A stretch of DNA of 64,000 bases from Escherichia coli (GCF_048403405.1 NZ_CP183129.1), one strand, 5' to 3'; positions 12,016 to 30,953 are shown, counted from the first letter of the stretch. A program made the numbers and translations. The notes: generated by a model not told the origin, from the letters alone.

Positions 12016-12062
12016 AGCCCATCCTTTGTTATCAACTTGTTATTTGCGTTGATAAACACAAA

Positions 12063-12078
12063 GCAAGGGGTGTGCCAC
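12063..12078 (-). promoter_or_regulatory. sigma54 (-24/-12) promoter of prpBCDE
   Basis: Minus strand reads GTGGCAC-ACCCC-TTGC (TGGCAC-N5-TTGC) about 50-65 bp upstream of prpB; divergent prpR encodes a sigma54 activator. Confidence 0.65.
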
Positions 12079-15708: not shown

Positions 15709-16524
15709 CTAAAGAGTGTAGCGGATTTTAACGTGCTTATTTACAGGATAATATCTGTCACCTAATTCCTGGACTCTATTAGATATCCATTGATTTAATC
15801 GCGCATCATCTCTGTATGTTTTTACGTCCAGAACAGAGAGCAATAACATCACCAGTGATTCAGGAAAAACAGGGTAGATATTTTTTAAGTGTAATAATAA
15901 TCCATGCGCAAGCGCCTGCTTAATGGGCGCGTCGGTCTCCGGGATAGACGACATTTCGCGAAGCCATTTTTCCACATGCATACACTCTTTCCCTTTAGGG
16001 AAAAGTCTCAGCAAAGGCATATGGTGTTCAAGAAGAATACATTTGCAATCTGTTCGCACTGAATCGATAAACTGCACTAATTTCTTAAGCCCGGTAAAGC
16101 GTCCAGCCTGCACATTTGCTTTAATATCAAGAAACGCATCGTCCTGGTCATATACCCAAACTGTCCCTTTTTGATTTTCAAGTATGCGAAAAACAAACTT
16201 AACCGGGTGATCAGGGTAATCCATCCAGTCATAAAACCCAGGGAAATCATTAAACTGCACATTTATGGTGAGTGCGTTATCGTCTGACCACTCACAGTCT
16301 CGTACGGCAGCCATGAGATGAATGAGTTTGTCGTCATCGACTAAATCATCACGACAATCATAAGGATAATCATAATATTGTTTAATCAAAACCTTGAATA
16401 TATCGACACAGGAAACCAGGGAGCTTTTGATATCCTCTGGTAACTGATTGTTTTTAACCGTATTAAGTATGCTTTGTTGCGTATATGGCATCAAATTATT
16501 GTGCGGAGCTTTTAATGATATCAT
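15709..16524 (-). CDS. yahL: Uncharacterized protein
   Basis: 271 aa ORF; AT-rich, no recognisable catalytic motif. Confidence 0.7.
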   Translation of the reverse strand: MISLKAPHNNLMPYTQQSILNTVKNNQLPEDIKSSLVSCVDIFKVLIKQYYDYPYDCRDDLVDDDKLIHLMAAVRDCEWSDDNALTINVQFNDFPGFYDWMDYPDHPVKFVFRILENQKGTVWVYDQDDAFLDIKANVQAGRFTGLKKLVQFIDSVRTDCKCILLEHHMPLLRLFPKGKECMHVEKWLREMSSIPETDAPIKQALAHGLLLHLKNIYPVFPESLVMLLLSVLDVKTYRDDARLNQWISNRVQELGDRYYPVNKHVKIRYTL

Positions 16525-16691
16525 CGCGATCTCTCTTAAATAAAAATAAACGTCGCAGATAATAAAGCTCTGATTAAACCAGGCACTATCAGAAATCGCT
16601 CATAACTAACGTGTGAAGTATTGTGTACTGGAGGGAGTTAATTTAACAATTTGAATTTACGTTATAGGTTTTACTGCTACTTTGATATTAT

Positions 16692-16729
16692 TTCGCTCTC
16701 CTTAACTAAAAAGTTAAGTGGAGAGCGAA
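16692..16729. other. Long inverted repeat (10 + 6 bp arms) immediately 3' of yahK
   Basis: ttcgctctcc-ttaact-aaaa-agttaa-gt-ggagagcgaa; no clear U-tract on either strand. Confidence 0.5.
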
Positions 16730-16766
16730 GTTAATATGTTAAACCACAGGGTATTTATTAATTTTT

Positions 16767-17816
16767 TCAGTCTGTTAGTGTGCGATTATCGATAACAAAA
16801 CGATATTTCACATCTCCTCGCAGCATTCGCTCATAGGCTTCATTAATTTGATCGGCCCGAATCATCTCTATATCAGCCACGATGCCATGTTCGGCGCAAA
16901 AATCGAGCATCTCCTGAGTTTCTGGAATGCCGCCAATCATAGAACCGGCTATCGCACGGCGTTTCATGATCAGGTTGAAAACTTCCGGCGATTTATGCGG
17001 TGTCGCAGGCGCACCAACCAGCGTCATGGTGCCATCACGCTTCAGCAAGGTGGTAAAATCGTCGAGATTATGTGGCGCAGCTACTGTATTCAAAATGAAA
17101 TCGAAACTCTTGAGATGAGCCGCCATCTCATCGGCATTGCGTGAGTTAACAACTTCATCGGCCCCCAGGGCTTTTGCCGCTTCGCGTTTTGACTCAGAAG
17201 TGGTAAATGCCACCACATGCGCCCCCATCGCGTGGGCCAGCTTAATCCCCATATGTCCCAGACCGCCGATGCCGACCACGCCCACTTTTTTACCCGGACC
17301 GACCTGCCAGTGACGTAGCGGCGAATACGTGGTGATCCCTGCACACAACAAAGGTGCCACCGCCGCCAGCTGCTCTTGCGGGTGACGAATACGCAGAACA
17401 TATCGCTCATGAACGACGATCTGTTGTGAGTAGCCGCCCAGAGTATGGCCCGGTTCGTCCGGCGTCGGCGAGTTATAGGTGCCGGTCATGTGATCACAGT
17501 AGTTTTCCAGCCCGTCTTCACACTCTTCGCAATGTTTACAACTGTCGACAATACAGCCGACACCGACCAGATCGCCCGGCGCATATTTTTCTACCTGATC
17601 ACCAACAGCTACCACGCGCCCTACAATTTCATGGCCCGGCACGCAGGGATAAACCGTCCCCGCCCACTCGGAACGGACCTGGTGGATATCGGAATGGCAG
17701 ACGCCACAGTAAGCGATTTCAATTTTGACATCATGCGGTCCCGGTTCACGCCGGGTGATATCCATCGATTCAAGTGGTTGTTTAGCGGAATATGCACCAA
17801 CAGCTTTGATCTTCAT
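16767..17816 (-). CDS. yahK: Zn-dependent alcohol dehydrogenase-family aldehyde reductase
   Basis: 349 aa; zinc-ADH motifs (GHEIVG; structural-zinc cysteine cluster CxxCxxC); Rossmann GVVGIGGLG. Confidence 0.85.
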   Translation of the reverse strand: MKIKAVGAYSAKQPLESMDITRREPGPHDVKIEIAYCGVCHSDIHQVRSEWAGTVYPCVPGHEIVGRVVAVGDQVEKYAPGDLVGVGCIVDSCKHCEECEDGLENYCDHMTGTYNSPTPDEPGHTLGGYSQQIVVHERYVLRIRHPQEQLAAVAPLLCAGITTYSPLRHWQVGPGKKVGVVGIGGLGHMGIKLAHAMGAHVVAFTTSESKREAAKALGADEVVNSRNADEMAAHLKSFDFILNTVAAPHNLDDFTTLLKRDGTMTLVGAPATPHKSPEVFNLIMKRRAIAGSMIGGIPETQEMLDFCAEHGIVADIEMIRADQINEAYERMLRGDVKYRFVIDNRTLTD

Positions 17817-17902
17817 TGTGTTTACTCCTGATTAGCTATGTGTATTTGGCGATGCCTGATATGTCATCGCGGCAAAACGCGTCCATTGAATATAGCCAAT
17901 AT

Positions 17903-18889
17903 TTAAACCACCCGATCCAGCCCCAACATGCCGCGAGCCTGAATGAAACAGAGCAGCAACGTTCCCCATAAGGCCATCGTCAGGTAGGGGCTTATACCGA
18001 GAATATTGAAGCCGCTTTCAATAATTTGCAGAAGAAACAGCGCCAGCACCATACCAATTATCCGCCCGCTGCCGCCGTCCGGATTAACCCCGCCGAGTAC
18101 TGCCGCGAGGATTGACACCAGCAAGTACGATTCGCCATAAGAGGCCTTAGCCGAGTTGAGTTTCGACATCATCAAAAATGCCGCTACCGCACAAAGCAAG
18201 GCGGAAATAACATACACCCATATCAGCACCCGACGAGTGTTAATACCGGAGTAAAGTGTTGCTCGTTCGTTAGAACCAATCAGATAAATGGCTTTACCGA
18301 GCGGCGTTTTCTCCAGCAATATCCACAGCCCCAGCGCCACTGCGGTAAACAACCACATCGGTAGCGGAATACCGAACCACTGTGCATGATTCAACCACAG
18401 CACCCATGAGGGATAATTGGCAATGGCGCTACCGCCTGTCACCAGAATATTTACCCCTTTGAGCAACGTCATCATCCCAAGCGTTGCAAGAATTGGCGAC
18501 ACTCGAATACCAGCAATCAATACGCCGTTACATAAACCGATTATCACCGCCGCGCCAGCGCCCGCCAGCAGCGTAGCGACAACCGTAGCAATACCCGGTG
18601 GATACTGAGTCGCCACCCACGCCATCACCAGTGAACAGGCGTTAGCAGTGGCTATAATTGACAAGTTAATGCCACCGCAAAGCATGGTCACCGCCATAGC
18701 CAACGCCAGAATGCCCAGCACGGGCATTTGCGAAGCGACGGACTGGAAATTACTTATCGACCAGAAAATCTCCGGCATAGTAATGCTGAACGCGGCAACA
18801 GTTAGCACCAGCAGGCCGATCAAGTAAAACTCAACGTTATTACGCCACGATTTTTTCATAGCAGACTCCGGTTCTGATGCTGACTCCAC
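17903..18889 (-). CDS. ABC transporter permease (sugar/CUT2-type)
   Basis: 328 aa polytopic membrane protein, second of two tandem permeases. Confidence 0.75.
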   Translation of the reverse strand: MESASEPESAMKKSWRNNVEFYLIGLLVLTVAAFSITMPEIFWSISNFQSVASQMPVLGILALAMAVTMLCGGINLSIIATANACSLVMAWVATQYPPGIATVVATLLAGAGAAVIIGLCNGVLIAGIRVSPILATLGMMTLLKGVNILVTGGSAIANYPSWVLWLNHAQWFGIPLPMWLFTAVALGLWILLEKTPLGKAIYLIGSNERATLYSGINTRRVLIWVYVISALLCAVAAFLMMSKLNSAKASYGESYLLVSILAAVLGGVNPDGGSGRIIGMVLALFLLQIIESGFNILGISPYLTMALWGTLLLCFIQARGMLGLDRVV

Positions 18890-19827
18890 GCCGTGGCGCT
18901 AATGCTGGCAACGATGATGATGCCGGTGATCAATGTTTGCCAGTAAGACGAGACTCCCAATAAATTTAGCCCGTTTTGCATCACTGCCAACAACACCACG
19001 CCGAGCAAAGTACCGGTTAACGTGCCGCGCCCGCCGAGCAAACTAGTGCCGCCAAGCACCACCGCAGCCAGTACTGTCAGCTCATAACCCAGAAGAGAAT
19101 CGGGGGCGACAGTCATCACCGTCCACGACTGCACTACACCCGCAGCACCAGACATCAATCCCATATAGCCATAGACGAAAAGTTGCAGTTTCAGCACGCT
19201 AAAGCCGATGCGACTGGCGGATTCACGGTTCCCGCCAAGGGCATAAATTTTGCGCCCTACACTGGTGAAATTCATGATAAACGCTGTTAGCAGCACCACC
19301 GTAATCATGGCGATCAGCGGCAGACCAAGGCCATAGTCATAGCCATCAGCATCGGTGTACTTGAACAACATTACCCCCTGCTCAAACCACGGCGGAAAGT
19401 CGTACAGCCACACACCTTTACTCAACCATAACAGCAGGCCATAGAAAATATTCAGCGTCGAAATGGTGATGATGATAGAAGGCACCCGTAGGCGATTAAC
19501 CAGTAAGGCGTTTATTAAGCCAAGTAAAATGCCGATGCCGCCCGCCAGGGCAAACGCGACAGCAAAGTTGCCACCAATTTTTTGCAGCAACAGCACCATG
19601 CCGTATTGCGCAATGATGGTCATTGCCGGAAACGAAATATCAATCCCACCGGAAATTAACACCACAAACAAACCACAGGCGAGAATAGTCAACATGGCAT
19701 AGTTATTGGCGAGATCGTACAAATTACCGAATGTCAGAAACTCGTCGCTGCGCCAGGCAAGGCCAACAAACAGCACCACAATCAGTAATGCCAGCCAGAA
19801 TTCATGGCGTTTTTTCAGTTCAGCCAT
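18856..19827 (-). CDS. ABC transporter permease (sugar/CUT2-type)
   Basis: 323 aa polytopic membrane protein; 8 nt overlap with ATPase gene end. Confidence 0.75.
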   Translation of the reverse strand: MAELKKRHEFWLALLIVVLFVGLAWRSDEFLTFGNLYDLANNYAMLTILACGLFVVLISGGIDISFPAMTIIAQYGMVLLLQKIGGNFAVAFALAGGIGILLGLINALLVNRLRVPSIIITISTLNIFYGLLLWLSKGVWLYDFPPWFEQGVMLFKYTDADGYDYGLGLPLIAMITVVLLTAFIMNFTSVGRKIYALGGNRESASRIGFSVLKLQLFVYGYMGLMSGAAGVVQSWTVMTVAPDSLLGYELTVLAAVVLGGTSLLGGRGTLTGTLLGVVLLAVMQNGLNLLGVSSYWQTLITGIIIVASISATAWSQHQNRSLL

Positions 19828-21319
19828 TTACCACCTCCGCAATCCTGGCCTGAGAACTGCTGTCAGGCAGGAAGCTATGGGTGATCTGACCTTTTTGCAT
19901 TACCAAAATCCGGTGGCTTTGATACCACGCTTCTTCAATTTCATCGCAGATCATCAATACCGCAATGCCATGAGCCGCCAGATCGCTGATAATGCCGTAT
20001 ATTCCTGCTTTGTTGGCGATATCAACACCGACAGTCGGGCTATCGAGAATCAACAGTCGTGGCCCAATCGCCAGCCATTTGGCGATCGATACTCGCTGCG
20101 CGTTACCCCCAGAAAGCGTATTCACCGGGAGATGTGGGTCAGAGACTTTGATGGTCAATGCCTTGATTAGCCTGTCCACCAGGTCACGCACTTTAGCTTC
20201 ACTCAGAAAGCCGAAGCGATCTTTTACCTTGTGAAAAACAGTGCTAATGATGTTGTCTTCAATAGATTGCGCCATCACCAAACCGCGCGACATGCGATCT
20301 TCCGAAACATAACCAATACCGTGGCGGATGGCGTCCTGGTTACTATGCAGTGTAACCGGCTGACCGTTGATGAGGATCTCACCAGCATCCGGTCGGGTCA
20401 TACCAAACAGACTCAGACATAATTCCGTGCGCCCCGCACCAAGCAGGCCAACAATCGACACCACTTCGCCCGCTTCCACCCGCAAGTTAATATTTTGATA
20501 TTCCCCATGACGACTTAAATTACGCACCTCTAGCACTGGGATGCTGGATTTTCCCTGCCACAACTCTCGCACCTGATATTCAAACTCCTGGCCGGTCATC
20601 AGGAAACCGAGTTGTTTTGTGGTCATCTCTGCAGCCGGAAAGGTCCCGACCAGCTCACCATCTTTCAACACTGAAATACGGTCGGAAACTTCCATCACCT
20701 CTTCCAGACGATGACTGACGAAGACCACGCAGATCCCGCGTTCCCGCAATTGATGCACCACCTGTAATAACCCTTGCACTTCCTGATGGGTCAGCGAAGC
20801 GGTTGGTTCATCCATCACGATCAACCGTGCGTCCTGCGCCAGTGCACGGCAAATTGCCACCAGCTGACAGCGGGCAATTGAAAGCTCAGAAACGAGCGTA
20901 TCCAGTGGCAATGTGACGTTAATACTGGTCATTGCCGCCTGCGCCACCTCACGCAGACGACGGCGGTTAACAAACAGACCGTGGTGATAGTGATTCACGG
21001 CGATATTCTCCCAGACACTCAGGTTAGGAAATAAAGAGAGGTCCTGATAAATCACCTGAATCCCCTGCGCCACCGAAGCGGCGGGTGTCAGCTTTGACCA
21101 GTTTTTCCCACCAAGCGTAATTTCCGCCCCCTCATCCGGGCGATAAACACCGGACATAATTTTAATCAACGTCGATTTACCACAGCCGTTTTGCCCGGCA
21201 AGGCAGTGCACTTCACCCGACATAAAGTCGAGAGAAACATCGCGCAGCGCTCGCGTGGCATGAAACGTTTTGTTGATATGACGAAGGGAAAGGAAGGTTT
21301 CCATAGCATCCCCTGGCAA
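19820..21319 (-). CDS. ABC transporter ATP-binding protein, duplicated ABC domains
   Basis: 499 aa; Walker A GQNGCGKST, signature LSGG in the second half; two-domain architecture typical of RbsA/LsrA-like ATPases. Confidence 0.8.
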   Translation of the reverse strand: MPGDAMETFLSLRHINKTFHATRALRDVSLDFMSGEVHCLAGQNGCGKSTLIKIMSGVYRPDEGAEITLGGKNWSKLTPAASVAQGIQVIYQDLSLFPNLSVWENIAVNHYHHGLFVNRRRLREVAQAAMTSINVTLPLDTLVSELSIARCQLVAICRALAQDARLIVMDEPTASLTHQEVQGLLQVVHQLRERGICVVFVSHRLEEVMEVSDRISVLKDGELVGTFPAAEMTTKQLGFLMTGQEFEYQVRELWQGKSSIPVLEVRNLSRHGEYQNINLRVEAGEVVSIVGLLGAGRTELCLSLFGMTRPDAGEILINGQPVTLHSNQDAIRHGIGYVSEDRMSRGLVMAQSIEDNIISTVFHKVKDRFGFLSEAKVRDLVDRLIKALTIKVSDPHLPVNTLSGGNAQRVSIAKWLAIGPRLLILDSPTVGVDIANKAGIYGIISDLAAHGIAVLMICDEIEEAWYQSHRILVMQKGQITHSFLPDSSSQARIAEVVNG

Positions 21320-21352
21320 TAAGAATCGGGGCTTTCGCCCCGAAGAAATGGA

Positions 21353-22339
21353 TTAATAAAGTGAGTCGATATTGTCTTTGTTGACCAGTAATACCTTATG
21401 GAAACGGATAATTCGCTTATCCATATCTACATCGGCCTTACCGAGATTCTCCATTTCTAATCCAGGTTTGATCTCTTCACCCTTCAGCAACGTGCTGGCG
21501 ACGGCCGCGAGTGCGTAACCTGCAGAGGCCGGATCGTAAGTAATCCCTTCGGTGATATCACCACTTTTAATCAGTGATGCCGCCTGTGAAGGGATCATCA
21601 TGCCATAGACTGCGACTTTATTTTTCGCCCGTTTCTCTTTCACTGCACGTCCCGCGCCAATCGGACCGTTTGAACCAAAGGAGACAACCGCTTTCAAGTC
21701 AGGATAGGTTTTCATCAGGTCCAGTGTGGTACGACGTGAGTCATCCACACTCTCGGCAACCGGCATGCGGCGGGTAACTTCATGCATATCCGGGTAATGC
21801 TCTTTCTGGTATTTCACCAGCAAGTCAGCCCATAAGTTATGCTGCGGCACGGTCAAACTACCCACGTAAATCACATAGCCGCCCTTGCCACCCATGCGTT
21901 TCGCCATATGCTCAACATATTCAGCGGCAAATTTTTCGTTATCAATGATTTCGATATCCCAGTTAGCACTTGGCTGACCGGGAGATTCGTTGGTCAGAAC
22001 CACAATCCCGGCATCTCGCGCTTTTTTGAATACCGGTTCCAGCACGTTGGCATCGTTTGGCACGATAGTAATTGCATTAACCTTACGGGCGATTAAATCC
22101 TCAATAATTTTAACCTGTTGCGGAGCATCAGTACTTGAAGGTCCCACCTGTGAGGCATTAACACCAAAGGCTTTACCCGCCTCGACCACACCTTCGCCCA
22201 TGCGATTAAACCACGGCATACCATCGACTTTAGAGATATTCACCACGACTTTTTCCGCTGCCTGGAGCGGCGCAGAAATTAGCGCAGCGCCTAATAACAG
22301 CGAAGACACCATATTGATAACAAAACGTTTATTCATCAT
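21353..22339 (-). CDS. Periplasmic substrate-binding protein, LsrB/RhaS-like
   Basis: 328 aa with Sec signal peptide; C-terminal ...KTYPDLKAVVSFGSNGP...VLLVNKDNIDSLY resembles LsrB ...KAYPDLDAIIAPDANAL...VIFNKDNIDKYDF as I recall it. Confidence 0.7.
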   Translation of the reverse strand: MMNKRFVINMVSSLLLGAALISAPLQAAEKVVVNISKVDGMPWFNRMGEGVVEAGKAFGVNASQVGPSSTDAPQQVKIIEDLIARKVNAITIVPNDANVLEPVFKKARDAGIVVLTNESPGQPSANWDIEIIDNEKFAAEYVEHMAKRMGGKGGYVIYVGSLTVPQHNLWADLLVKYQKEHYPDMHEVTRRMPVAESVDDSRRTTLDLMKTYPDLKAVVSFGSNGPIGAGRAVKEKRAKNKVAVYGMMIPSQAASLIKSGDITEGITYDPASAGYALAAVASTLLKGEEIKPGLEMENLGKADVDMDKRIIRFHKVLLVNKDNIDSLY

Positions 22340-22589
22340 TTCAGCCTCATTGCAGGGTAGTCAGGAAGTGTTCGCCCAAATTAGCGCGCTGGAGAGAATA
22401 AGAATTTTCGAATATTTTTATGCAGAATAAACAGCCCTATTTCAGGCAGCTATTAAAAATTTGGTTATAAATATGGACAAAACGGGCAGCAATAATAAGT
22501 GTGACATTCATCACGTAAAAAATAGCAAAATAAACAAAATTAGCGATATTTTATGTTTGTGAGCTTATTTCGCGTAGAAAAATAGTTAT

Positions 22590-23033
22590 CTACACAACGT
22601 CAATAAGGGCATATTCTTCAAAGATAACGTCCATTTCGGGTGAATAGCATCCTTCTGCCTGGAAAAAACGACGGTGTTCATTACGCCAATATTCAAGACT
22701 GAGGTCACCTTCACCTTCCTTACGGGCAAGCTCCGCGGTGACATCAGAAAAGCGCAGTAAATGCAGGCCAATCACTCTGATAACACAGACAGGCTCACCA
22801 CGGCTATTTTCTACAATCTTATACTCACCAATCATCGGAAATGCGTTGTCTTCAATACATCCCGCCAGCGAACCACAGGAAGCTGTTTTAACACCTGTCG
22901 CAATCAACGTTGCGAGGTGATCGGCCAACGCTGCTGAATCGCCAAAAGTACAAAAGGAAGCATGGGGATATTTTTGTGAGATTTTTTCTTTTATGGTCAT
23001 GAGAATATTTTCGCGATTACGGAAAAAAATCAC
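22590..23033 (-). CDS. Small hypothetical protein, possibly ASCH/PUA-like
   Basis: 147 aa ORF (likely shorter, from MTIKEK...); G-V-K-T motif faintly ASCH-like; weak support. Confidence 0.35.
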   Translation of the reverse strand: MIFFRNRENILMTIKEKISQKYPHASFCTFGDSAALADHLATLIATGVKTASCGSLAGCIEDNAFPMIGEYKIVENSRGEPVCVIRVIGLHLLRFSDVTAELARKEGEGDLSLEYWRNEHRRFFQAEGCYSPEMDVIFEEYALIDVV

Positions 23034-23297
23034 ATCTTAATTACTGTTGATAACCATCAGCAAGAGGATCATTGGTTTTTCTATGTTTAATCTTTTTTAT
23101 CCGAAGCCGGTCACATTTATGGCTTGATAAATACCTTTGTTAAAACTCACTTTTGTGTATTTCTCTCAAATAATCCCCTGGAAATTATGCCGGGAGATTA
23201 TAAAGTTCAGGATCATTCATTAGCAAACCATTGCTGCCCCACTCCCTGGGGCTTTAAATCTCTTACGATTCACCATTGCAGGCGTTTCAAATGCGTA

Positions 23298-24680
23298 TCA
23301 ACCTGCCACACTCCCCCACACCAGTTGCCCTTTATGGAACGTCGCCGTTCTCGGCGAGATACGCGCCACCGCCTCGGCGGAACAGGAGGCGTCCACCAGC
23401 ACAAAGCTGGCGTCATCCTGCGCTTTGGGCCAGACGCGCTCGCCTTTTTCATTGAGCGGCAATACATCGCCAGTGGCTAAAAACAGCGAACGGGAGAGGT
23501 TCTGTTCGTTAGGGCGAATATAGAGCTGCGCGTACAGATTGGCTTTTTCCAGCATGTCGCCCAGGCCGTAAGGCGACCAGTGGTCGATAACGCTGTCGGT
23601 GCCAGTCATCACTTTTACGCCTTTGTCGTGCAACTGTTTGAGCGGCATATGCAACGTGCCAATCGGCACCGTCGAGGCGATAGAAATTTGCTGCGCCGCC
23701 ATCCGGTGCGCCAGTTCATCTACCTGTTGCTCATTGAGCGTTGCCAGCGCAAAGGCGTGGCTGATGGTCAGCTTGCCCTTCAGTTGCGGCGTTTTCTCTA
23801 CCGTTTCAACCATATAATTGATGGCTGCCACGCCTGCCGGAGTGGTTTCGTGCAGGTGAATATCGACGCCTTTGTCGTAGTCCAGCGCAATCTGGAACAT
23901 GGTGTCGAGGGATTTTTCCATCGCGCCATCAACACTGGTTGGGTCCAGCCCGCCGACGTAATGCGCCCCTGCCTGCATCGCTTCGCGCATTAAGGGTTCC
24001 GATTTCGACAGCAGCAAACCGTGCTGCGGGAAGGCGACAATTTCACACTCGAAGCCCGCCTGACGTCGCGCCAGCACCGCCTGCAAATTTTGCAGATTTT
24101 TCAGGCCGGAAACCGGTTCGATATTGCAGTGGCTGCGGGCAATGGTAGTGCCTTTCGACTGCAATAAATCGATCAGTTTTTCCGCTCGTTCCTGCGAGTA
24201 CGGTTGCAGCTCCGGCAGCATTTTCTGCTCGAGTTTGATCATGTCCTGGATGGTGGTGCCTGCCGGACGATTGAGCGAGCGCCACGGCCCGCCGTAAAAG
24301 GTTTTGTCGAGATGAATATGCATGTCGCGGGTAGTGGGCAGCATCAGCTTACCGCCAGCGTCATAGTGCGGCAGCGTGGCGTCCGGATGCTGCTTGTTCT
24401 CGCGCAGGGCAACAATTTTGCCGTTCTGAATCTCTACGGTCTGGTGCGCCGTGCGGGTCTGTACTGCCACACCGTTTTCGTAGTCAAAACCGGTTTCCAG
24501 CAGCACGTTGTCGAGATAGTAGTGCGGGTCAGTGATTTTCATGGTGTTATTCGCGTCGCAATGGATTGTGCCAGAGACTGCCGCATGGGCGAGCGGCACA
24601 GAGGTACCAAACAGCGCGGCGGCGGTGACCATCTTACCGCTCTGGCTCAGAAACTCACGGCGGCTATTGCTTTCTTTCAT
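23298..24680 (-). CDS. yahJ: Amidohydrolase-superfamily deaminase with twin-arginine signal peptide
   Basis: 460 aa; N-terminus SRREFLSQSGKMVTAAALFGTSVPLAHA-AV is a Tat signal; metal-binding HIHLD motif. Confidence 0.85.
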   Translation of the reverse strand: MKESNSRREFLSQSGKMVTAAALFGTSVPLAHAAVSGTIHCDANNTMKITDPHYYLDNVLLETGFDYENGVAVQTRTAHQTVEIQNGKIVALRENKQHPDATLPHYDAGGKLMLPTTRDMHIHLDKTFYGGPWRSLNRPAGTTIQDMIKLEQKMLPELQPYSQERAEKLIDLLQSKGTTIARSHCNIEPVSGLKNLQNLQAVLARRQAGFECEIVAFPQHGLLLSKSEPLMREAMQAGAHYVGGLDPTSVDGAMEKSLDTMFQIALDYDKGVDIHLHETTPAGVAAINYMVETVEKTPQLKGKLTISHAFALATLNEQQVDELAHRMAAQQISIASTVPIGTLHMPLKQLHDKGVKVMTGTDSVIDHWSPYGLGDMLEKANLYAQLYIRPNEQNLSRSLFLATGDVLPLNEKGERVWPKAQDDASFVLVDASCSAEAVARISPRTATFHKGQLVWGSVAG

Positions 24681-24689
24681 CTTACGTCC

Positions 24690-25640
24690 TTACGTTTTAA
24701 TAATATGGGTGCCCGTTTCACCGCGCAGCGCCGCAGGCAGGCATTCCGGCGTGGTGATAATCACTTCTTTGCCGCCCTGTTCCAGGAACGTCAGGCTGGC
24801 GATGATTTTTGGCAACATGCTGCCAGGCGGAAAATGCCCTTCCTGCATATAGCGGGTCATGGTGGCAATATCCACCCGATCCAGCGCCTGCTGCTGCGGT
24901 TTGCCAAAGTGAATACACACTTTTTCGACGCCAGTGGTGATCACCAGAATGTCGGCGTGAATTTCACGGGCCAATAGCGCGGTAGAGAGATCTTTGTCGA
25001 TAACCGCGTCCACGCTTTGGTAATCCCCCGCTTCACTGCACACCACCGGAATTCCGCCACCGCCCGCGCCAATCACCACAAAGCCTTGTTGGATCAGCGC
25101 CTTAATGGCAGGTGCTTCTACAATACGTTGCGGTTCCGGCGAGGCGACCACGCGGCGATAGCCCCGTCCGGCATCTTCAACAAAACGCCAGTCAGGGTTT
25201 GCCTTTTGTAATTCGTCACGCTGGCTTTCACTAAAGAATGCGCCGATGGGCTTGGTGGGATGGGCAAACCCCGGATCGTTTTTATCCACTTCCACCTGAG
25301 TCACCACGGTGACGGCTTTTTTCTCACCGTGACGCGCCAGTCGGTTATTCAGCGCCTGTTGGATCAGATAGCCAATGCCGCCTTGCGTATCCGCCACACA
25401 GTTCGCCAGCGGCGTTAAGGGCAGCCCTTCGCGCTCGTGGGCTATCTCCGCGCGGCGTAAATCCAGACCGACCTGCGGCCCGTTGCCGTGGGTCAGCACA
25501 ATGTCGTAATCGGAAGCCAGCATTTCCAGCACCGTATCGGCCACGGCTTTCACCGCCTCCGCCTGATGCTCAATCGACTGGCTGGCGTTATCTTTGATAA
25601 TGCTGTTGCCACCAATGGCAACGACCACAAGTTCTTTCAT
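24690..25640 (-). CDS. yahI: Carbamate kinase
   Basis: ORF track extends to 25814; ATG at 25638-25640 gives MKELVVVAIGGNS..., 316 aa; 9 bp upstream of yahJ. Confidence 0.85.
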   Translation of the reverse strand: MKELVVVAIGGNSIIKDNASQSIEHQAEAVKAVADTVLEMLASDYDIVLTHGNGPQVGLDLRRAEIAHEREGLPLTPLANCVADTQGGIGYLIQQALNNRLARHGEKKAVTVVTQVEVDKNDPGFAHPTKPIGAFFSESQRDELQKANPDWRFVEDAGRGYRRVVASPEPQRIVEAPAIKALIQQGFVVIGAGGGGIPVVCSEAGDYQSVDAVIDKDLSTALLAREIHADILVITTGVEKVCIHFGKPQQQALDRVDIATMTRYMQEGHFPPGSMLPKIIASLTFLEQGGKEVIITTPECLPAALRGETGTHIIKT

Positions 25641-25734
25641 GTTGTTATGTCCGCTACAGAGGGTGATGGGGTTATGAGAGTGAGGTTGCCCCTCTCCCCA
25701 GAAGGGAGAAGGGATCGTAAGGTGCGTTTGCAGG

Positions 25735-27153
25735 TCAGACGCCGTAACGTTCGCACCAGCCAAGAATGGCTTTCTCGAAGCAGGCGAATGGTGGATGCAC
25801 AATGCCCGCGCCAATCATGCCGACGCCCGCATCTTTATGGGCGATGGCGGTGTTGATCACCGGCAGAATGCCGCTGCTGCCCACGCGGGTGATGTCGATT
25901 GCCGACGGCACGCCCATAAAACCGAGCAGCGGAATGGTGACGTTGGGGTTTTCACCGAGAGTGATTTCACGCATCTGGCGGGAGAAATCGATAGCCTCTT
26001 CCACCGTGCCGCCCACCAGCGCGACGATCGCGGGCGCGGTCGCCATAGCAAATCCGCCAATGCCGTAGGTTTCGGTGATGGCGCTGTCGCCGATATCCAG
26101 CCCCGAATCTTCCGGCTTATAACCGGCAAACATCGGGCCGATCACCTGCTGCGCCGGACCGGTAAACCATTGCCCCGGTAATCCGCTGACCCGCAGACCG
26201 AACTCGACGCCGTTACGCGCCATCGTGGTCACCACGGTGCTGTATTCGATGCCGTGCGCCGCATCCATCGCCGCTTTACACATCGCCATCCACGTCGGGC
26301 CGGAGAAGTAGTCGCTGCTGGCGACAAACTCAAACACTTCGCGCTGTTGTTCAATGGAATAACCTGCCTGAATAATCCCTGGCGTCAGCGCCTGAATCAG
26401 CAGCGTCGTCCCGGCGTTATTGCGGTTATGGCATTCATCGCCCATATGCAGCGCTTGCGCCAGCATTAAGCGCAGATCGATTTCGCCGATAATTTTCATC
26501 GCGTCGCGCAGCATGGGCCCCTGCACATCGCGCATCCAGTTGAGGCGGTCAATCACGCTCTGGTCGTTAGCGCCCATACGCAAAATCTTCGCCATCTGCT
26601 CGCTCATATTGGTGTAAGCGATGTTGCCGTAGGTTTTGTTTTTTACGATGTGCATAAACATCGAGGCCGAGGTAACACCCGCCATCGATCCCACGCAGTC
26701 ATGTTCGTGGCACGGCGAGAAGGTGATCTCCCCGGAGGCCGCCAGGTCAGCCGCCTCGTCGAGATCTTTCGCCAGCCCTTCGAACACCAGCGCCCCGGTG
26801 ACCGCGCCTTTCATTGCGCCGCACATTTTTTCCCAGGTCACTGGCGGCCCGGCGTGAAGAATGGTTTTCGGCGTCATTCCCGGCACCACGTTAATCGCCT
26901 GATCAAAACCAATCAGCACCGGATGCGACTGGATAATGCGCTCCAGCGCCTGCTGGTTAGCGGCGGCGATTTTGTCTGCCAGCGGCGAATCGGCAATGTT
27001 ATCCAGCGCCTGCACCACCTGCATATTGCCCTGCCCCGGCGGCGTCCAGTCGAGTTGGGTCACTTCTACATGCTGCTTTTTCAGATCATCGCTAAACATG
27101 GCGATGCCGACGTTAATAACGTTCAACGGTTGGCTAAACAGTGACGGGCTCAT
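25735..27153 (-). CDS. yahG: DUF1116-family protein (YlbE-like)
   Basis: 472 aa; ATG overlaps yahF stop by 1 nt (ATGA); strong SD GGGGAGGAAG upstream. Confidence 0.8.
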   Translation of the reverse strand: MSPSLFSQPLNVINVGIAMFSDDLKKQHVEVTQLDWTPPGQGNMQVVQALDNIADSPLADKIAAANQQALERIIQSHPVLIGFDQAINVVPGMTPKTILHAGPPVTWEKMCGAMKGAVTGALVFEGLAKDLDEAADLAASGEITFSPCHEHDCVGSMAGVTSASMFMHIVKNKTYGNIAYTNMSEQMAKILRMGANDQSVIDRLNWMRDVQGPMLRDAMKIIGEIDLRLMLAQALHMGDECHNRNNAGTTLLIQALTPGIIQAGYSIEQQREVFEFVASSDYFSGPTWMAMCKAAMDAAHGIEYSTVVTTMARNGVEFGLRVSGLPGQWFTGPAQQVIGPMFAGYKPEDSGLDIGDSAITETYGIGGFAMATAPAIVALVGGTVEEAIDFSRQMREITLGENPNVTIPLLGFMGVPSAIDITRVGSSGILPVINTAIAHKDAGVGMIGAGIVHPPFACFEKAILGWCERYGV

Positions 27154-28700
27154 CAGGCTTCCTCCCCTTTGCAGATAAATTCACGCGCCAGCAATCCGGT
27201 ATTGGTGCTGCTGCTGGCCAGAATCACTCCGGCATCAAGCAGCATCTGGCTTTGTTGTTCTAATGATGGCGTATCAAGATCGGTACCCAGCACATAGGCG
27301 AGAATGATCAACTCACGTCCTTCGGCAGCGGCGATCGCTTTCGCCTCTTTGATCGCCTCGATGGTGGAACCGACCGGATCTTCATGCGATCCAAACCCGA
27401 GCACAAAATCCATCACGATCACCGCCACTTCTGGATCGCGCGCCTCTTCGATCAAGCGGCTGATACGGTTGGTGGGGTCAATCATTGGATGCGGCTTGCC
27501 GTTGGTGAAGTCGTCATCGCCAAAGTCGAGGAAGGTGTGTTTGATGCTGCGGTTGATATCTTGCAGGCGGAATTCAGGATCGGGCTGAATGTTGCTGTAG
27601 ACATCGCCATGTTTTTCCATCACCGCAAACATGGTTTCGTCACACAGCGTGCCGCCGCAGAACAGGCCACGAATGTATTTCTGCTGCGGTTGCAGACGCG
27701 CACGCACATCCGCAATCAACGGCTGGTTCAGGGTATGCAGATCGAGATGTTCCTGTTTCACGCCGGAGAGCATTACCGCTTTCAGCGCCGCTTCTTTGCT
27801 GCCGCGAGCAAACTGTAGCCCCTGCTCATCCACCGGCGTTTCAACGCGACCGAGGAAGCAGACCACCACCGGCTTGCGGCAGGCACGTGCGCGTTCCAGC
27901 ACTTTACGGGCCACCGCAGGCGCAGGCGGTTTGGAGATAAGCACAATGATTTCAGTTTGCGGATCGTTTTCCAGCATCCCGATGGCGTCGAGCATCATCA
28001 GGCCGCCGATTTTCTCGCTCAGGTCGCGCCCGCCGGTGCCAATCAGTTGCGAAACGCCGCCGCCAAATTCATGAATGCGGACGCTCAGCTCCTGGCTGCC
28101 GGTGCCGGATGCACCAACAATACCGATGTTGCCGCGACGCACGGCGTTACCAAAGCAGAGCGCCGCGCCGTTGATAATCGCCGTACCGCAGTCTGGCCCC
28201 ATCATCAGCAGCCCTTTTTCGTGGGCCAACTGTTTGAGCGCCAGTTCATCTTCAACTGAGACGTTATCGGAAAACAGCATCACGTTAAGATCGTTTTGCA
28301 GCGCCTGACGCGCTTCGCGAGCGGCAAACAGACCGTTGACCGAAATCACCGCCAGGTTACTTTCCGGGATATGCTTTTTGGCGCTGGCAATAGTGGCATA
28401 GCGTGCTTCATGTGAACCAGTTTGAGCTTTGGTGTTGAACAGTTCTTCAATCTCCACCAGCAACTGCTCGTTGTCCGCCCCCGATTTACCATTGATGACA
28501 ATCATCAGGTCGCCGTTTTTCGCCTGTTCCAGCTCCGGCGTCAGCAGTCCTAAATTTTTCAGCACACCTTTGTTCATTTCGGTCGCCATCGCCACAAATG
28601 CCTGCTCGACGCCGTCGAGTTTATTTGCACGCGTGGAGATAGACATCAGCGAGACAGAATCAAAATAGGTATTCGGTTTAATGACTATTTTAACTGACAT
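27153..28700 (-). CDS. yahF: FdrA-like protein with acyl-CoA synthetase (NDP-forming) / succinyl-CoA-synthetase-like CoA-binding fold
   Basis: 515 aa; glycine-rich nucleotide/CoA loops (GIVGASGTGSQ, GGGVSQLIGTGGRD). Confidence 0.8.
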   Translation of the reverse strand: MSVKIVIKPNTYFDSVSLMSISTRANKLDGVEQAFVAMATEMNKGVLKNLGLLTPELEQAKNGDLMIVINGKSGADNEQLLVEIEELFNTKAQTGSHEARYATIASAKKHIPESNLAVISVNGLFAAREARQALQNDLNVMLFSDNVSVEDELALKQLAHEKGLLMMGPDCGTAIINGAALCFGNAVRRGNIGIVGASGTGSQELSVRIHEFGGGVSQLIGTGGRDLSEKIGGLMMLDAIGMLENDPQTEIIVLISKPPAPAVARKVLERARACRKPVVVCFLGRVETPVDEQGLQFARGSKEAALKAVMLSGVKQEHLDLHTLNQPLIADVRARLQPQQKYIRGLFCGGTLCDETMFAVMEKHGDVYSNIQPDPEFRLQDINRSIKHTFLDFGDDDFTNGKPHPMIDPTNRISRLIEEARDPEVAVIVMDFVLGFGSHEDPVGSTIEAIKEAKAIAAAEGRELIILAYVLGTDLDTPSLEQQSQMLLDAGVILASSSTNTGLLAREFICKGEEA

Positions 28701-29553
28701 AATTCCCTCCGTAGGTTTGGCTCAGCGCACAACCATCGGCCATGCCATACAGCATGTCGCAGCCGGAACTGGAGCCAATATGTTTAATTTTTTCTATTGC
28801 CTGAGTTGCGTTCCCAGGGATGTCATAAATAATGTTGTGAATAAAACGATGAATATTTTCCCGGCAGCGTTGTTGTAATGCGGCTTCCAGCGTTATGGCA
28901 CTTAATAACGTGGTATTATTTCTGCCGCGTTGCAGACCGAGATAAAATTCCTCTTTGTATTTTTCCGCCGGATGTCCGGAAATAAATAAAATAAGCGCCA
29001 GACCTGTTAAATAATCGTCGGCTGATGGCGTAAGGCCAATCCCTAAGCCCATCATACTGGCGACTGCTGAGGCGATATTTTGTTTATCGTTTACGGCCTG
29101 AATAACTGCCCGTCGTTTACTATGTAATTCTTTATTTAACGCCTGATAAAACGGATTATCGCCGCAATAATTAAACAGGGTTTCATTTTCCCCCAGGTGC
29201 TGATGAATAATGTCATGCCACTGTTGCCAGGCGATAAGGTGAAAATTCACAGCGGTCATTTGCAAGGTTGGGGACAGCCAACGCCGACAACGACTCATCT
29301 CTATATGAAGATGTTGACCAACCGTAATGCCTTGATCGTCAAACTGAACCTTATCACCATGCCGGAACAGACCATCAAAGTGAGTGAGTGCCAACCGACA
29401 ACTGTTTGGCGCATTGTCGTACTCTTCACAAAGCAGCGTCAGCAACTGCTGGCGGGCCGGAAGTGCGATATTTACCGCTCTGGCAAAGACCTGTTCAACC
29501 TGTCCTTGCCCCCGCTGCGCCAGAAAATCAGCATCCGCAGTTAGCGCCCACAC
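28690..29553 (-). CDS. yahE: DUF2877-family protein (YlbF-like)
   Basis: 287 aa; 11 nt overlap with yahF. Confidence 0.75.
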   Translation of the reverse strand: MWALTADADFLAQRGQGQVEQVFARAVNIALPARQQLLTLLCEEYDNAPNSCRLALTHFDGLFRHGDKVQFDDQGITVGQHLHIEMSRCRRWLSPTLQMTAVNFHLIAWQQWHDIIHQHLGENETLFNYCGDNPFYQALNKELHSKRRAVIQAVNDKQNIASAVASMMGLGIGLTPSADDYLTGLALILFISGHPAEKYKEEFYLGLQRGRNNTTLLSAITLEAALQQRCRENIHRFIHNIIYDIPGNATQAIEKIKHIGSSSGCDMLYGMADGCALSQTYGGNYVS

Positions 29554-29592
29554 ACACCGTCTTTCTGGTGTGTTGATAGCAAGCCTCCCGGT

Positions 29593-30198
29593 TTATGCAC
29601 CTGCGGCAATCAGTAACTGCGCAATCTCTTCAAAGCCTCGTTCCCGCGCCAGTTCCAGCGGCGTTTTGCCATATTTATCCGTCATGTGCGGGCTGGCACC
29701 GTGTTCAAGCAATAACTGGACAATCGCCTGCTGTTTAATCCCGCCATCATTAAGCACAATTGCTTCCAGTAGCGGCGTCCAGCCAACATGGTTGGTCTGG
29801 TTAACGTTAATCTCCGTATGCGCCAAAAGCTCTTTTACAATACTTAAATGGCCTTTTTCACAGGCAGGCGTCAGGCCGACACCGCCAAAACGGGTGACGC
29901 AATTAAGATCAGGTTTAGCCGGTAAAATAATCCGTAACAGGGTTAAATCGCCGGTCAGGCAGCTAATTAAAAAAGGATTTGAACATATTTGATCTTGCTT
30001 ATTAATATCCGCTCCGGCATCAATTAATGCCTGAACGCAAGCATATTGCTGATATAAACTTGCCAGCGTAATTGCCGTTTTCCCCTGACGATCGCAGGTA
30101 TTAATATCGACACCCAGCGCAAGGCAGGTTTTTACTTTATCGATATCACCCTGTTGCGCAGCCAATAAATAGTCGGCAGGTAGATTTTTTATAGTCAT
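29593..30198 (-). CDS. yahD: Ankyrin-repeat protein
   Basis: 201 aa with tandem ankyrin-like repeats (G-TPL--A...LL--GA). Confidence 0.8.
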   Translation of the reverse strand: MTIKNLPADYLLAAQQGDIDKVKTCLALGVDINTCDRQGKTAITLASLYQQYACVQALIDAGADINKQDQICSNPFLISCLTGDLTLLRIILPAKPDLNCVTRFGGVGLTPACEKGHLSIVKELLAHTEINVNQTNHVGWTPLLEAIVLNDGGIKQQAIVQLLLEHGASPHMTDKYGKTPLELARERGFEEIAQLLIAAGA

Positions 30199-30455
30199 TC
30201 ACATTCCCCTGGTTTTTGTGGCTGTTTTCGATGAATTGAGAATAGCAACGATAATCTGATAAAAGAACCCGCTTAAATTTAATTCGCCGTATTTCGCCTT
30301 TTTGTTGAATGATGTTCAACAATCTTTTCGCAGTGTGCGGTAGTGCAATATTTGTTTCTTTGACCCGATACCCTTTCACTCAATCAGGTTTTATTTCTCT
30401 ATAGTCTGCACATGTAAGAGTAGCTTTTGTCCATGTCTAACCAGAGGGGAACAAG

Positions 30456-30953
30456 ATGAACGGACTCACGGCAACGGGTGTCACCGTCGGTATTTGTGCA
30501 GGGCTTTGGCAGTTAGTGTCTTCACATGTCGGGCTCTCTCAGGGATGGGAATTATTAGGAACCATTGGCTTCGTCGCCTTTTGCAGTTTTTATGCCGCAG
30601 GCGGCGGTAAATCGGGGTTTATCAGAAGTCTGGCGGTTAATTATTCCGGGATGGTGTGGGCATTTTTCGCCGCGCTGGCTGCCGGTTGGCTGGCCTCGGT
30701 GAGTGGGATTTCTGGGTTCTGGGCGAGCGTGATTACTACCGTGCCTTTCTCAGCGGTAGTGGTCTGGCAAGGACGTTTCGGTTTATTGTCTTTTATTCCC
30801 GGAGGCTTTCTCGGCATGACGCTATTTTTTGCCAGCGGGATGAACTGGACGGTGACATTACTGGGTTTTCTGGCGGGTAACTGCGTGGGGATAATTTCAG
30901 AATATGGCGGACAAAAATTAAGCGAAGCGACGACTAAACGCGACGGGTATTAA
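30456..30953 (+). CDS. yahC: Small inner-membrane protein
   Basis: 165 aa, 4-5 predicted transmembrane helices. Confidence 0.7.
   Translation: MNGLTATGVTVGICAGLWQLVSSHVGLSQGWELLGTIGFVAFCSFYAAGGGKSGFIRSLAVNYSGMVWAFFAALAAGWLASVSGISGFWASVITTVPFSAVVVWQGRFGLLSFIPGGFLGMTLFFASGMNWTVTLLGFLAGNCVGIISEYGGQKLSEATTKRDGY

Follow-up and report, generated by a model that had tools for sequence, protein, structure and literature searches.

A conserved yah operon within an eleven-gene interval of Escherichia coli: a proposed ATP-yielding carbamoyl pathway beside an independent pentose importer

Do the eleven genes that follow one another on the minus strand of an Escherichia coli chromosome, between positions 29553 and 16767 of a stretch of 64,000 nucleotides (GCF_048403405.1 NZ_CP183129.1; the whole stretch is called the window below), build one catabolic pathway, or do they only share a strand? 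A first-pass annotation, made from the sequence alone, had described them as a single co-transcribed, ATP-yielding route for a carbamoyl or ureido compound, in which the products of yahE, yahF, yahG, yahI and yahJ, a small open reading frame (ORF), a periplasmic binding protein with its ATP-binding cassette (ABC) ATPase and two permeases, and the aldehyde reductase YahK would all take part. The genes themselves are well defined: ORF calls return the same eleven minus-strand genes, which RefSeq also annotates on a chromosome identical to the window over this interval, and the interval is 100% identical to several complete genomes. The single pathway does not survive closer inspection; the interval brings together four units that share a strand and are otherwise independent, namely the yah operon, a gene for an ASCH-domain protein, the sugar importer Aau and yahK. 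The reading favoured here, with modest confidence, is that yahD-E-F-G-I-J together with yahC and the regulatory gene yahB constitute one conserved operon encoding an ATP-yielding carbamoyl pathway, the rest of the interval being independent of it.

The division into units emerges from the comparison of genomes. A scan with YahG against one genome per species returned 80 loci in Enterobacterales and Aeromonas (YahG identity 86-99%), and these 80 genomes display a constant core, composed of the divergent yahB followed by yahD-E-F-G, an optional permease gene, and yahI-J. Adjacency was counted in the 65 loci from other genera for which both flanks were available: yahD is present in 64, yahB in 62, yahI in 61 and yahJ in 60, and in none of them do the Aau genes, the ASCH gene or yahK adjoin the yah genes; yahK, whose product in the window is 99% identical to YahK of E. 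coli K-12, is linked to yah only in Escherichia. Among 5426 complete E. coli genomes, the yah core, counted as present at a coverage of at least 80%, is found in 4998 (92%) and the ASCH-Aau module in 2213 (41%), the module being missing from 59% of the genomes that keep yah.

The alternative that all eleven genes form one operon, with the ABC importer bringing in a nitrogen-rich substrate and YahK reducing an aldehyde product, can appeal to the single strand, to several overlapping junctions and to the lack of a strong terminator from yahJ to yahK, apart from a hairpin after aauA. Recomputation reproduces every junction length first reported: yahE and yahF overlap by 11 nt, yahF and yahG share 1 nt (ATGA, with GGGGAGGA upstream), yahI and yahJ are separated by 9 bp, and the Aau ATPase and permease genes overlap by 8 nt, the two permease genes overlapping by 4 nt. 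That all junctions are tight is not correct, given the gaps of 94 bp between yahG and yahI and of 86 bp between the last permease gene and yahK and, above all, two AT-rich gaps of more than 250 bp (yahJ to ASCH, 297 bp, 37% GC; ASCH to the binding-protein gene, 253 bp, 34% GC). Moreover, Aau (Z0415-Z0419) possesses a promoter of its own, shown with reporters to require AraC and to respond only to L-arabinose (PMC11127945), i.e. transporter and enzyme genes are transcribed independently. Considered with the lack of linkage in the 65 loci, the sugar ligand in the crystal structure of the binding protein and the genomes that keep yah without the module, this largely refutes the eleven-gene pathway and leaves a single operon with next to no credibility.

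What, then, does the yah core encode? In 2024 AllFGH was identified as an oxamic transcarbamylase, converting oxalurate and phosphate into oxamate and carbamoyl phosphate, from which AllK then forms ATP (PMC11326118, PMC9843812); the connection of the fdrA-type module with an oxamate carbamoyltransferase feeding carbamate kinase, which the first-pass annotation had pointed to, has since been demonstrated. The yah paralogues go unmentioned in PMC11326118. The yah core contains all the corresponding parts, that is, F, G and H subunits and a carbamate kinase encoded in the same operon, and both profile and pairwise comparison bear out the homology claimed for YahE, YahF and YahG with the AllH, AllF and AllG families. 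YahF is 38% identical to AllF (E 6e-102), contains the Pfam domains CoA_binding and Ligase_CoA, exceeds the cut-off of the NCBIfam FdrA model (NF004760, 491 bits versus 433) and matches the structure of E. coli FdrA (PDB 3DMY, 1.4e-82). YahG, the most conserved member, is 45% identical to AllG (E 3e-119) and matches Pfam AllG (PF06545, formerly DUF1116; 7.7e-89) and PDB 3CLQ (2e-195); YahE is 25% identical to AllH (E 1e-10) and matches Pfam AllH (PF11392, formerly DUF2877; 3.6e-28), with no match among solved structures. YahI, 38% identical to AllK, had rightly been called a carbamate kinase (subfamily NF009007, 645 bits versus a cut-off of 266). Since RefSeq and Pfam names already reflect the relation to AllG and AllH, the homology itself is not new.

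The relation is not one of orthology. In distant clusters of Bacilli and of α- and β-proteobacteria (Brevibacillus, Neobacillus, Janthinobacterium and Bosea) the F and G subunits are 61-79% identical to those of Yah versus 36-47% to those of All, YahG reaching 71-79% in Bacilli, Janthinobacterium and Bosea; over the gene set of the same four genera and Pasteurella, identity to Yah ranges from 55 to 81%. Because these clusters are far nearer to Yah than to All, yah is no recent duplicate. A distance tree of the G subunits resolves three deep groups, i.e. AllG, a cluster from the tkt1 island, and a Yah clade in which the Enterococcus faecalis protein of 3CLQ is basal; on these sequence comparisons, Yah is a separate and ancient orthogroup.

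An ankyrin-repeat protein, YahD, is possibly a fourth component of the enzyme. Its gene, omitted from the first-pass annotation, precedes yahE by 39 bp on the same strand and opens the conserved unit; of the Yah-type loci examined, all but the basal one of E. faecalis encode an ankyrin protein together with the enzyme, the protein being 55-68% identical to YahD in Brevibacillus and Janthinobacterium and of a longer form with ankyrin and tetratricopeptide repeats (Ank-TPR) in Neobacillus, Bosea and Photobacterium. A carbamate kinase is found with Yah-type F and G in most contexts; none was observed in the loci of Photobacterium and E. faecalis. All six yah genes are under purifying selection, including in lineages lacking the permease, as judged from the ratio of nonsynonymous to synonymous substitution rates (dN/dS, 0.02-0.26): with respect to Kluyvera and Citrobacter it is 0.02-0.05 for yahG, about 0.06 for yahJ, about 0.06-0.07 for yahI (0.016 with respect to E. 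albertii), 0.07-0.08 for yahF, 0.10-0.14 for yahD and 0.16-0.26 for yahE, the fastest-evolving member; a value of 0.80 for yahF against E. albertii was discarded as an alignment artefact due to a truncated contig. In enterohaemorrhagic E. coli (EHEC), ribosome footprints were reported across the gap between yahG and yahI, and an operon yahDEFGIJ was suggested by the authors (PMC4765031).

The system is also mobile. About 70 IncF conjugative plasmids of E. coli and Klebsiella carry genes for a LysR regulator, an ankyrin protein, the H, F and G subunits, the permease and a carbamate kinase, without a deaminase, the proteins being 53-94% identical to chromosomal Yah proteins or their orthologues; some E. 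coli therefore harbour two copies of the system. The same minimal set occurs in Janthinobacterium. Since these minimal modules contain no deaminase and no extra enzyme, transferase, permease and kinase look self-sufficient, and the deaminase looks like a feeder step. On these plasmids, of which pEC21Z014-165K (NZ_CP101275.1) is one, the yah-like module adjoins a gene for a PAS-domain chemoreceptor and a Tn3-family transposase.

Where it is present, the deaminase offers a hint as to the substrate. YahJ had been described as an amidohydrolase with a twin-arginine translocation (Tat) signal, and both parts of this description are confirmed, by the domains Amidohydro_1/3 and by the N-terminal motif SRREFL (leader MKESNSRREFLSQSGKMVTAAALFGTSVPLAHA), respectively; the motif is kept in orthologues, including those of Pasteurella and Shinella. 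The YahJ signal has been listed among Tat substrates, and a yahJ deletion mutant of extraintestinal pathogenic E. coli (ExPEC) showed a competitive index of 0.70 in mice (PMC7549933). YahJ belongs to NCBIfam PRK06846 (715 bits versus a cut-off of 447) and falls far below the cut-offs of the cytosine deaminase models (NF005759, 69.6 versus 403; NF006685, 82 versus 483); its best PDB matches are the AtzC-like 6NBO (2.9e-44) and 2QT3 (5e-30), followed by CodA (1e-15 to 3e-19). The deaminases of Yah clusters are of two unrelated kinds, the Tat-exported YahJ type in γ-proteobacteria and Shinella, and a GuaD-like protein of 150 residues in Bacilli (PDB 1WKQ, 6.6e-31). An orthologue of YahJ from Shinella, which is 47% identical and bears a Tat signal, is encoded two genes from the permease gene in the absence of transferase genes, a pairing which suggests that YahJ and the permease act in sequence. 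The relatives of YahJ and of its counterpart in Bacilli point to amino-substituted heterocycles or amidines.

The gene for the permease itself, a protein of 516 residues with about a dozen transmembrane (TM) helices, occupies the gap between yahG and yahI at 53 of the 65 loci, and its distribution is complementary to that of yahC, a gene that lies with yahB divergently to yahD-J and that, like yahB, the first-pass annotation had left out: only yahC is present in 12 loci and only the permease gene in 53, every locus having exactly one of the two. Loci of the yahC type belong to Escherichia, Pseudocitrobacter, Kluyvera, Citrobacter amalonaticus, Klebsiella and Raoultella; since these genera are related, the complementarity may reflect a single replacement event. 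As hhalign detects no homology between the permease and YahC, the latter is no fragment of the former. The AlphaFold (AF2) model of the permease matches SVCT1, UraA, UapA, AZG2, BicA and SLC26Dg with a probability of 1.0 and TM-scores of 0.45-0.58, which, as far as a model can, establishes a 7+7-TM fold of the UraA type. The names 'xanthine/AzgA permease' given to such proteins in databases were rejected, not being backed by profiles (one PF00860 match among 120 relatives). At the corresponding site of the window, 51 bp (25678-25728) stand where K-12 has 378 bp of a repetitive extragenic palindromic (REP) element; in K-12 and EHEC this element is REP23, once annotated as yahH (PMC11551758, PMC4765031), for which translation has been reported in EHEC.

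The regulator is consistent with a catabolic operon related to allFGHK. The best NCBIfam matches of YahB are AllS (7.7e-80) and PunR (8.6e-71), both below cut-off, and by sequence YahB is a paralogue of the two; it is 70% identical to its counterpart in Janthinobacterium and 85% to those on IncF plasmids, and the regulators of Yah-type loci are either YahB-like LysR or PucR-type proteins. AllS activates allFGHK (PMC12535856), and YahB is likely to activate yahD-J. A candidate operator is provided by a 21-bp inverted repeat, TTGTTGAA-N5-TTCAACAA (30322-30302), located about 125 bp upstream of the yahD start and containing the LysR motif T-N11-A. When up to 4 substitutions were allowed in the search (mostly 0-2 were found), the arms of the repeat, with a variable spacer, were recovered in 78 of 78 loci, mostly at -120 to -135 and in a minority at -140 to -300.

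A route can be drawn from these elements. Homology, gene linkage, the export signal, purifying selection and the separateness of Aau are demonstrated, and from them we infer the reactions, the passage across the membrane, what YahD does and where YahB binds. An exogenous amino- or imino-substituted nitrogen compound would be deaminated, in the periplasm by YahJ or, in Bacilli, by the cytoplasmic GuaD-like enzyme; the resulting ureido product, bearing its carbamoyl group on a good leaving group, would be imported by the 516-residue permease in most genera, and YahC may take over import in the permease-less variant of Escherichia, Kluyvera and Klebsiella. YahE, YahF and YahG, probably with YahD, would then use phosphate as acceptor for the terminal carbamoyl group, in the way AllFGH acts on oxalurate, and YahI would convert carbamoyl phosphate and ADP into ATP, NH3 and CO2, the operon probably being activated by YahB through the inverted repeat. 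The substrate is unlikely to be the endogenous oxalurate on which AllFGH acts; indeed, K-12 deleted for allFGH makes 0 mM oxamate with yahB and yahEFG intact (PMC11326118, Tables 1-3), which means that yah is not induced by oxalurate or that the Yah enzymes make no use of it. A more specific proposal, put forward tentatively and judged to have rather less than an even chance, is that YahDEFG and YahI with a UraA-fold permease and a deaminase form a widespread, partly plasmid-borne ATP-yielding pathway acting on a non-oxalurate compound of the amino/imino, purine/pyrimidine-derived or guanidino type, by means of a four-component, ankyrin-containing carbamoyltransferase; candidate substrates would be a product of oxidised guanine, an ammelide- or biuret-type compound or a creatinine-type compound.

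A number of observations weigh against these proposals. The literature search (yah gene names, DUF names, fdrA with carbamate kinase) found no functional study of yahDEFGIJ and no enzymatic, genetic or expression evidence for any yah step, the chemistry being argued by analogy at 25-45% identity. AllFGH needs AllH, yet an AllH-like ORF is missing, according to a hidden Markov model (HMM) search, from 28 of 91 loci, about 24 of them complete: in Enterobacter, Leclercia, Lelliottia, Silvania and Aeromonas cavernicola (which account for the approximately 24 complete ones), and also in Serratia sp. DD3, a gap stands between yahD and yahF, the remaining cluster genes being 80-90% identical; the AllH-like subunit would be either dispensable in the Yah type or supplied from elsewhere. 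No ring-opening enzyme is conserved with the cluster among the loci, which leaves the origin of a terminal carbamoyl group from a heterocycle unexplained, so the substrate would be linear or the complex would do more than AllFGH is known to do. E. coli has no dedicated permease, and the substitution by YahC rests on a pattern of presence that may go back to one event. The permease has no match in Pfam or NCBIfam, falls by sequence profile into neither NCS2/NAT nor AzgA, and is aligned by hhalign to E. coli YbbY with a probability of 0.4%; its AF2 model is of moderate confidence (predicted local distance difference test, pLDDT, 63; predicted TM-score, pTM, 0.64), and the UraA fold assigned on this model, common to nucleobase and anion carriers, does not separate substrate classes. 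Finally, a consensus scan of 16400-30600 gave 11 promoter-like sites (14.5 in shuffled sequence) and 15 terminator-like ones (16.1 in shuffled sequence), therefore the sequence gives no transcript boundaries; only the hairpin distal to aauA (21343-21326) and a promoter-like site upstream of the ASCH gene, matching at 10 of 12 positions, stood out.

Oxalurate deserves further consideration, since the yah operon could specify a second oxamic transcarbamylase, serving exogenous oxalurate or a parabanate or imino precursor turned into oxalurate by YahJ. The E. faecalis protein of 3CLQ is 70% identical to YahG versus 48% to AllG, its F partner 54% to YahF versus 38% to AllF, and the protein branches at the base of the Yah clade. 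According to reports cited in PMC11326118, an oxalurate pathway comprising an oxamate transcarbamylase and a carbamate kinase of its own can be induced in Streptococcus faecalis ATCC 11700, and parabanic acid induces the enzyme in a Streptococcus; a dedicated permease, of a fold class that includes organic-anion carriers, would also suit an imported anionic ureide. However, no ankyrin gene, 516-residue permease or neighbouring carbamate kinase belongs to the uncharacterised E. faecalis cluster. Both systems, 36-47% identical to each other, are retained by E. coli, Citrobacter and others, and the allFGH deletion mutant, whose pathway is blocked, forms no oxamate in spite of its intact yahB and yahEFG, so that a second oxalurate system is regarded as rather improbable, if still worth keeping in mind.

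Other accounts of the core fare worse. RefSeq names YahF an acyl-CoA synthetase, and its CoA_binding and Ligase_CoA domains do resemble the α subunit of succinyl-CoA synthetase, so that an acyl-CoA might be activated or cleaved and the carbamate kinase gene be there by coincidence; the resemblance is however limited to residues ~100-290, the same domains serve in AllF, with AllG and AllH, a carbamoyltransferase (PMC11326118), and a carbamate kinase gene accompanies F and G in most contexts and in all three paralogous clusters of E. coli, which makes this account very improbable. A slim chance is likewise given to the synthetic direction, in which YahI would make carbamoyl phosphate for YahDEFG to carbamoylate an imported amide or amine, in detoxification or towards a ureido metabolite: AllFGH is reversible and was in fact assayed in that sense, from oxamate and carbamoyl phosphate to oxalurate (PMC11326118), yet in clusters of this kind carbamate kinases normally serve catabolism (PMC9843812), and linkage to an importer and a deaminase, as well as regulators of AllS-like or PucR type, fits catabolism. 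Nor is the operon of E. coli at all likely to be a decaying relic, as the lost permease and the REP23 element in the spacer of K-12 and EHEC might suggest (PMC11551758, PMC4765031); against decay stand the six-gene core in more than nine tenths of the complete genomes (4998 of 5426), the low dN/dS among permease-less lineages, the EHEC ribosome footprints (PMC4765031) and the mild fitness defect of the yahJ mutant (PMC7549933). The carbamoyl-phosphate-forming pathway sketched above remains the preferred reading of the yah core.

The positions of the yah genes and of the neighbouring units, which are considered below, are collected in Table 1.

Table 1. Features of the yah region and of the adjoining units, in window coordinates.
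Feature	Position	Strand	Assignment
yahB	31045-31977	+	LysR-type regulator
yahC	30456-30953	+	small polytopic membrane protein, DUF1097 by annotation
inverted repeat TTGTTGAAcatcaTTCAACAA	30302-30322	-	candidate YahB operator
yahD	29593-30198	-	ankyrin-repeat protein
yahE	28690-29553	-	AllH-like subunit
yahF	27153-28700	-	AllF/FdrA-like subunit, succinyl-CoA-synthetase-alpha-like fold
yahG	25735-27153	-	AllG-like subunit
yahG-yahI spacer	25641-25734	-	permease site in most other genera; REP23 in K-12/EHEC
yahI	24690-25640	-	carbamate kinase
yahJ	23298-24680	-	predicted Tat-exported (periplasmic) amidohydrolase, AtzC/cytosine-deaminase branch
ASCH-domain gene (small ORF of the first-pass annotation)	22590-23000	-	separate unit
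aauA	21353-22336	-	periplasmic D-ribulose/L-arabinose binding protein
Aau ATPase (Z0416-7)	19820-21319	-	two ABC domains
Aau permease (Z0418)	18856-19827	-	ribose/arabinose-type permease
Aau permease (Z0419)	17903-18859	-	ribose/arabinose-type permease
yahK	16767-17816	-	NADPH-dependent aldehyde reductase, RefSeq product name

The binding protein, which had been assigned to the carbamoyl pathway, is AauA, part of a sugar importer: it is identical at 325 of 327 positions to AauA of EHEC (PDB 9I1M) and keeps the six residues contacting D-ribulose (K36, W42, E117, H166, E195 and S222 in window numbering), the ligand contacts being those listed in PMC12307932, where D-ribulose is given a dissociation constant (Kd) of 2 uM and L-arabinose one of 598 uM. 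The four-gene Aau importer prefers D-ribulose and feeds pentose metabolism. Its ATPase, with two ABC domains, is AraG/RbsA-like in NCBIfam (aligned over residues 5-492), and the two permeases, whose genes are described in PMC11127945, best resemble RbsC/AraH-like models of ribose/arabinose type, all below cut-off. The ATPase start annotated in RefSeq is probably too short, since a start at 21223 leaves about 10 residues ahead of the Walker A motif; when the ORF of 499 residues which begins with TTG at 21319, the likely start, is compared with AraG and other CUT2 ATPases, its residue 5 falls on their position 3, the alignment with RbsA and XylG also beginning at the fifth residue. In strain EDL933 the ATPase gene is annotated as two ORFs (Z0416-7). 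The 33 bp that separate aauA from the ATPase gene contain a 7-bp GC-rich hairpin, TCGGGGCgaaaGCCCCGA, with a T-rich tail (21326-21343, minus strand), which may act as an intra-operon attenuator allowing an excess of binding protein. One AraC half-site with 2 mismatches is present at 22472-22488, such matches not being above chance in the window.

Outside E. coli, four Aau-like genes stand alone in Atlantibacter and an Aau-like operon lies beside araC, araB and araA in Providencia stuartii, in both cases without the ASCH gene; the latter linkage fits the published control of Aau by AraC. In P. stuartii CP099526.1 the operon is situated between a cytosine permease-amidohydrolase pair and araC-araB-araA. 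Published work treats Aau as a horizontally acquired island. The module has however been deleted from K-12: there, and in about 2800 further complete E. coli genomes without it, two short remnants persist between yahJ and yahK, namely the terminal 72 nt of the gene for the second Aau permease (17903-17974) and 70 nt spanning the 3' end of the ASCH gene (22568-22637), so the K-12 arrangement is a deletion scar and not the ancestral state. The ASCH protein matches Pfam ASCH (8.4e-22) and PDB entries 1T62 and 3S9X, and upstream of its gene lies the best promoter-like match of the region (23226-23197). A nucleoside-type substrate, which the ASCH domain and a ribose-like transporter might have suggested, was considered and rejected, both being unlinked to yah elsewhere and the ligand of the transporter being known. 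Between the yah and ASCH genes, 46 nt past the yahJ stop, there is a GC-rich hairpin, GCCCCAgggagTGGGGC (23236-23252, minus strand), no clear terminator because no T run follows it; homology with K-12 breaks off right after. Matches to the sigma-54 promoter pattern in the window are not above chance; a perfect consensus, TGGCAC-N5-TTGCT, occurs outside the interval at 12062-12077 (minus strand), upstream of prpB and adjoining the gene for the enhancer-binding protein PrpR.

The notion that the interval holds an undescribed system is upheld for the yah core, which is uncharacterised, and fails for Aau, which is published, and for yahK, annotated as a known reductase. The yah operon is among the densest clusters of uncharacterised genes ('y-ome') of E. 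coli (PMC11551758), and, of the three carbamate kinase paralogues of K-12, only AllK has an assigned pathway in the literature examined. What is added here comprises the boundaries of the units, the Yah orthogroup, the ankyrin component, the complementarity of the lost permease and yahC, the occurrence of two deaminase types, the copies on plasmids and the candidate operator. With the sugar transporter a false lead has been removed that would have misdirected substrate screens, and handles have been gained in the periplasmic deaminase, the candidate operator and the species with a complete, permease-bearing variant, such as those of the Citrobacter freundii group, Enterobacter and Providencia. 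The substrate, once found, would name a new nitrogen and energy source for bacteria of the gut and urinary tract and extend the AllFGH enzyme class beyond oxalurate; the non-oxalurate proposal, if true, would add a third energy pathway of deiminase type beside those for arginine and agmatine.

How the yah system compares with those already known can be summarized as follows. It shares with AllFGHK the homologous F, G and H subunits and Pfam families, the adjacent carbamate kinase and an AllS-related LysR regulator; it differs in gene order (D-E-F-G-I versus F-G-H-K), in the ankyrin protein, absent from allFGHK, in its linkage to a permease and a deaminase and not to allantoin enzymes, in an identity of only 25-45%, and in the loss of the H-like subunit in some lineages, and chromosomal yahEFG is no substitute for allFGH in allantoin fermentation. 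The tkt1-island cluster of avian pathogenic E. coli (APEC) O1 (PMC3349570), found at NC_008563.1 4320779-4327992 as FdrA, DUF1116 and DUF2877 proteins with a carbamate kinase, has the same four-gene enzymatic core and a LysR regulator; it forms a separate branch, 42-48% identical to both Yah and All, lacks the ankyrin protein and YahJ, and adds a cysteine hydrolase, an 'allophanate hydrolase-related' protein and a cytosine-type permease, a context resembling biuret/triuret gene neighbourhoods in nitrifier genomes (PMC12625717). The AllH-AllF-AllG cluster of E. faecalis, closest to Yah in its G and F subunits, has a PucR-type regulator as in Bacilli and a different membrane protein, of 393 residues. 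YahJ shares with AtzC (N-isopropylammelide isopropylaminohydrolase) and CodA the amidohydrolase fold, with similarity across the catalytic domain, and differs from them by the Tat signal, an extra N-terminal segment and its unnamed subfamily, PRK06846. The Aau genes of the window are those of EHEC (PMC11127945, PMC12307932; PDB 9I1M), with no substantive difference. The arginine and agmatine deiminase pathways, lastly, would follow the same logic, in which deimination, phosphorolysis and ATP formation are combined with a dedicated carrier, and share no homology with Yah save the carbamate kinase: YahJ is a Tat-exported amidohydrolase and not a guanidino-modifying enzyme, the Yah transferase is of the AllFGH type and not of the aspartate or ornithine carbamoyltransferase (ATCase/OTCase) fold, and, as no OTCase-fold protein is encoded in the yah cluster, yah stands outside the deiminase pathways and resembles them in function only.

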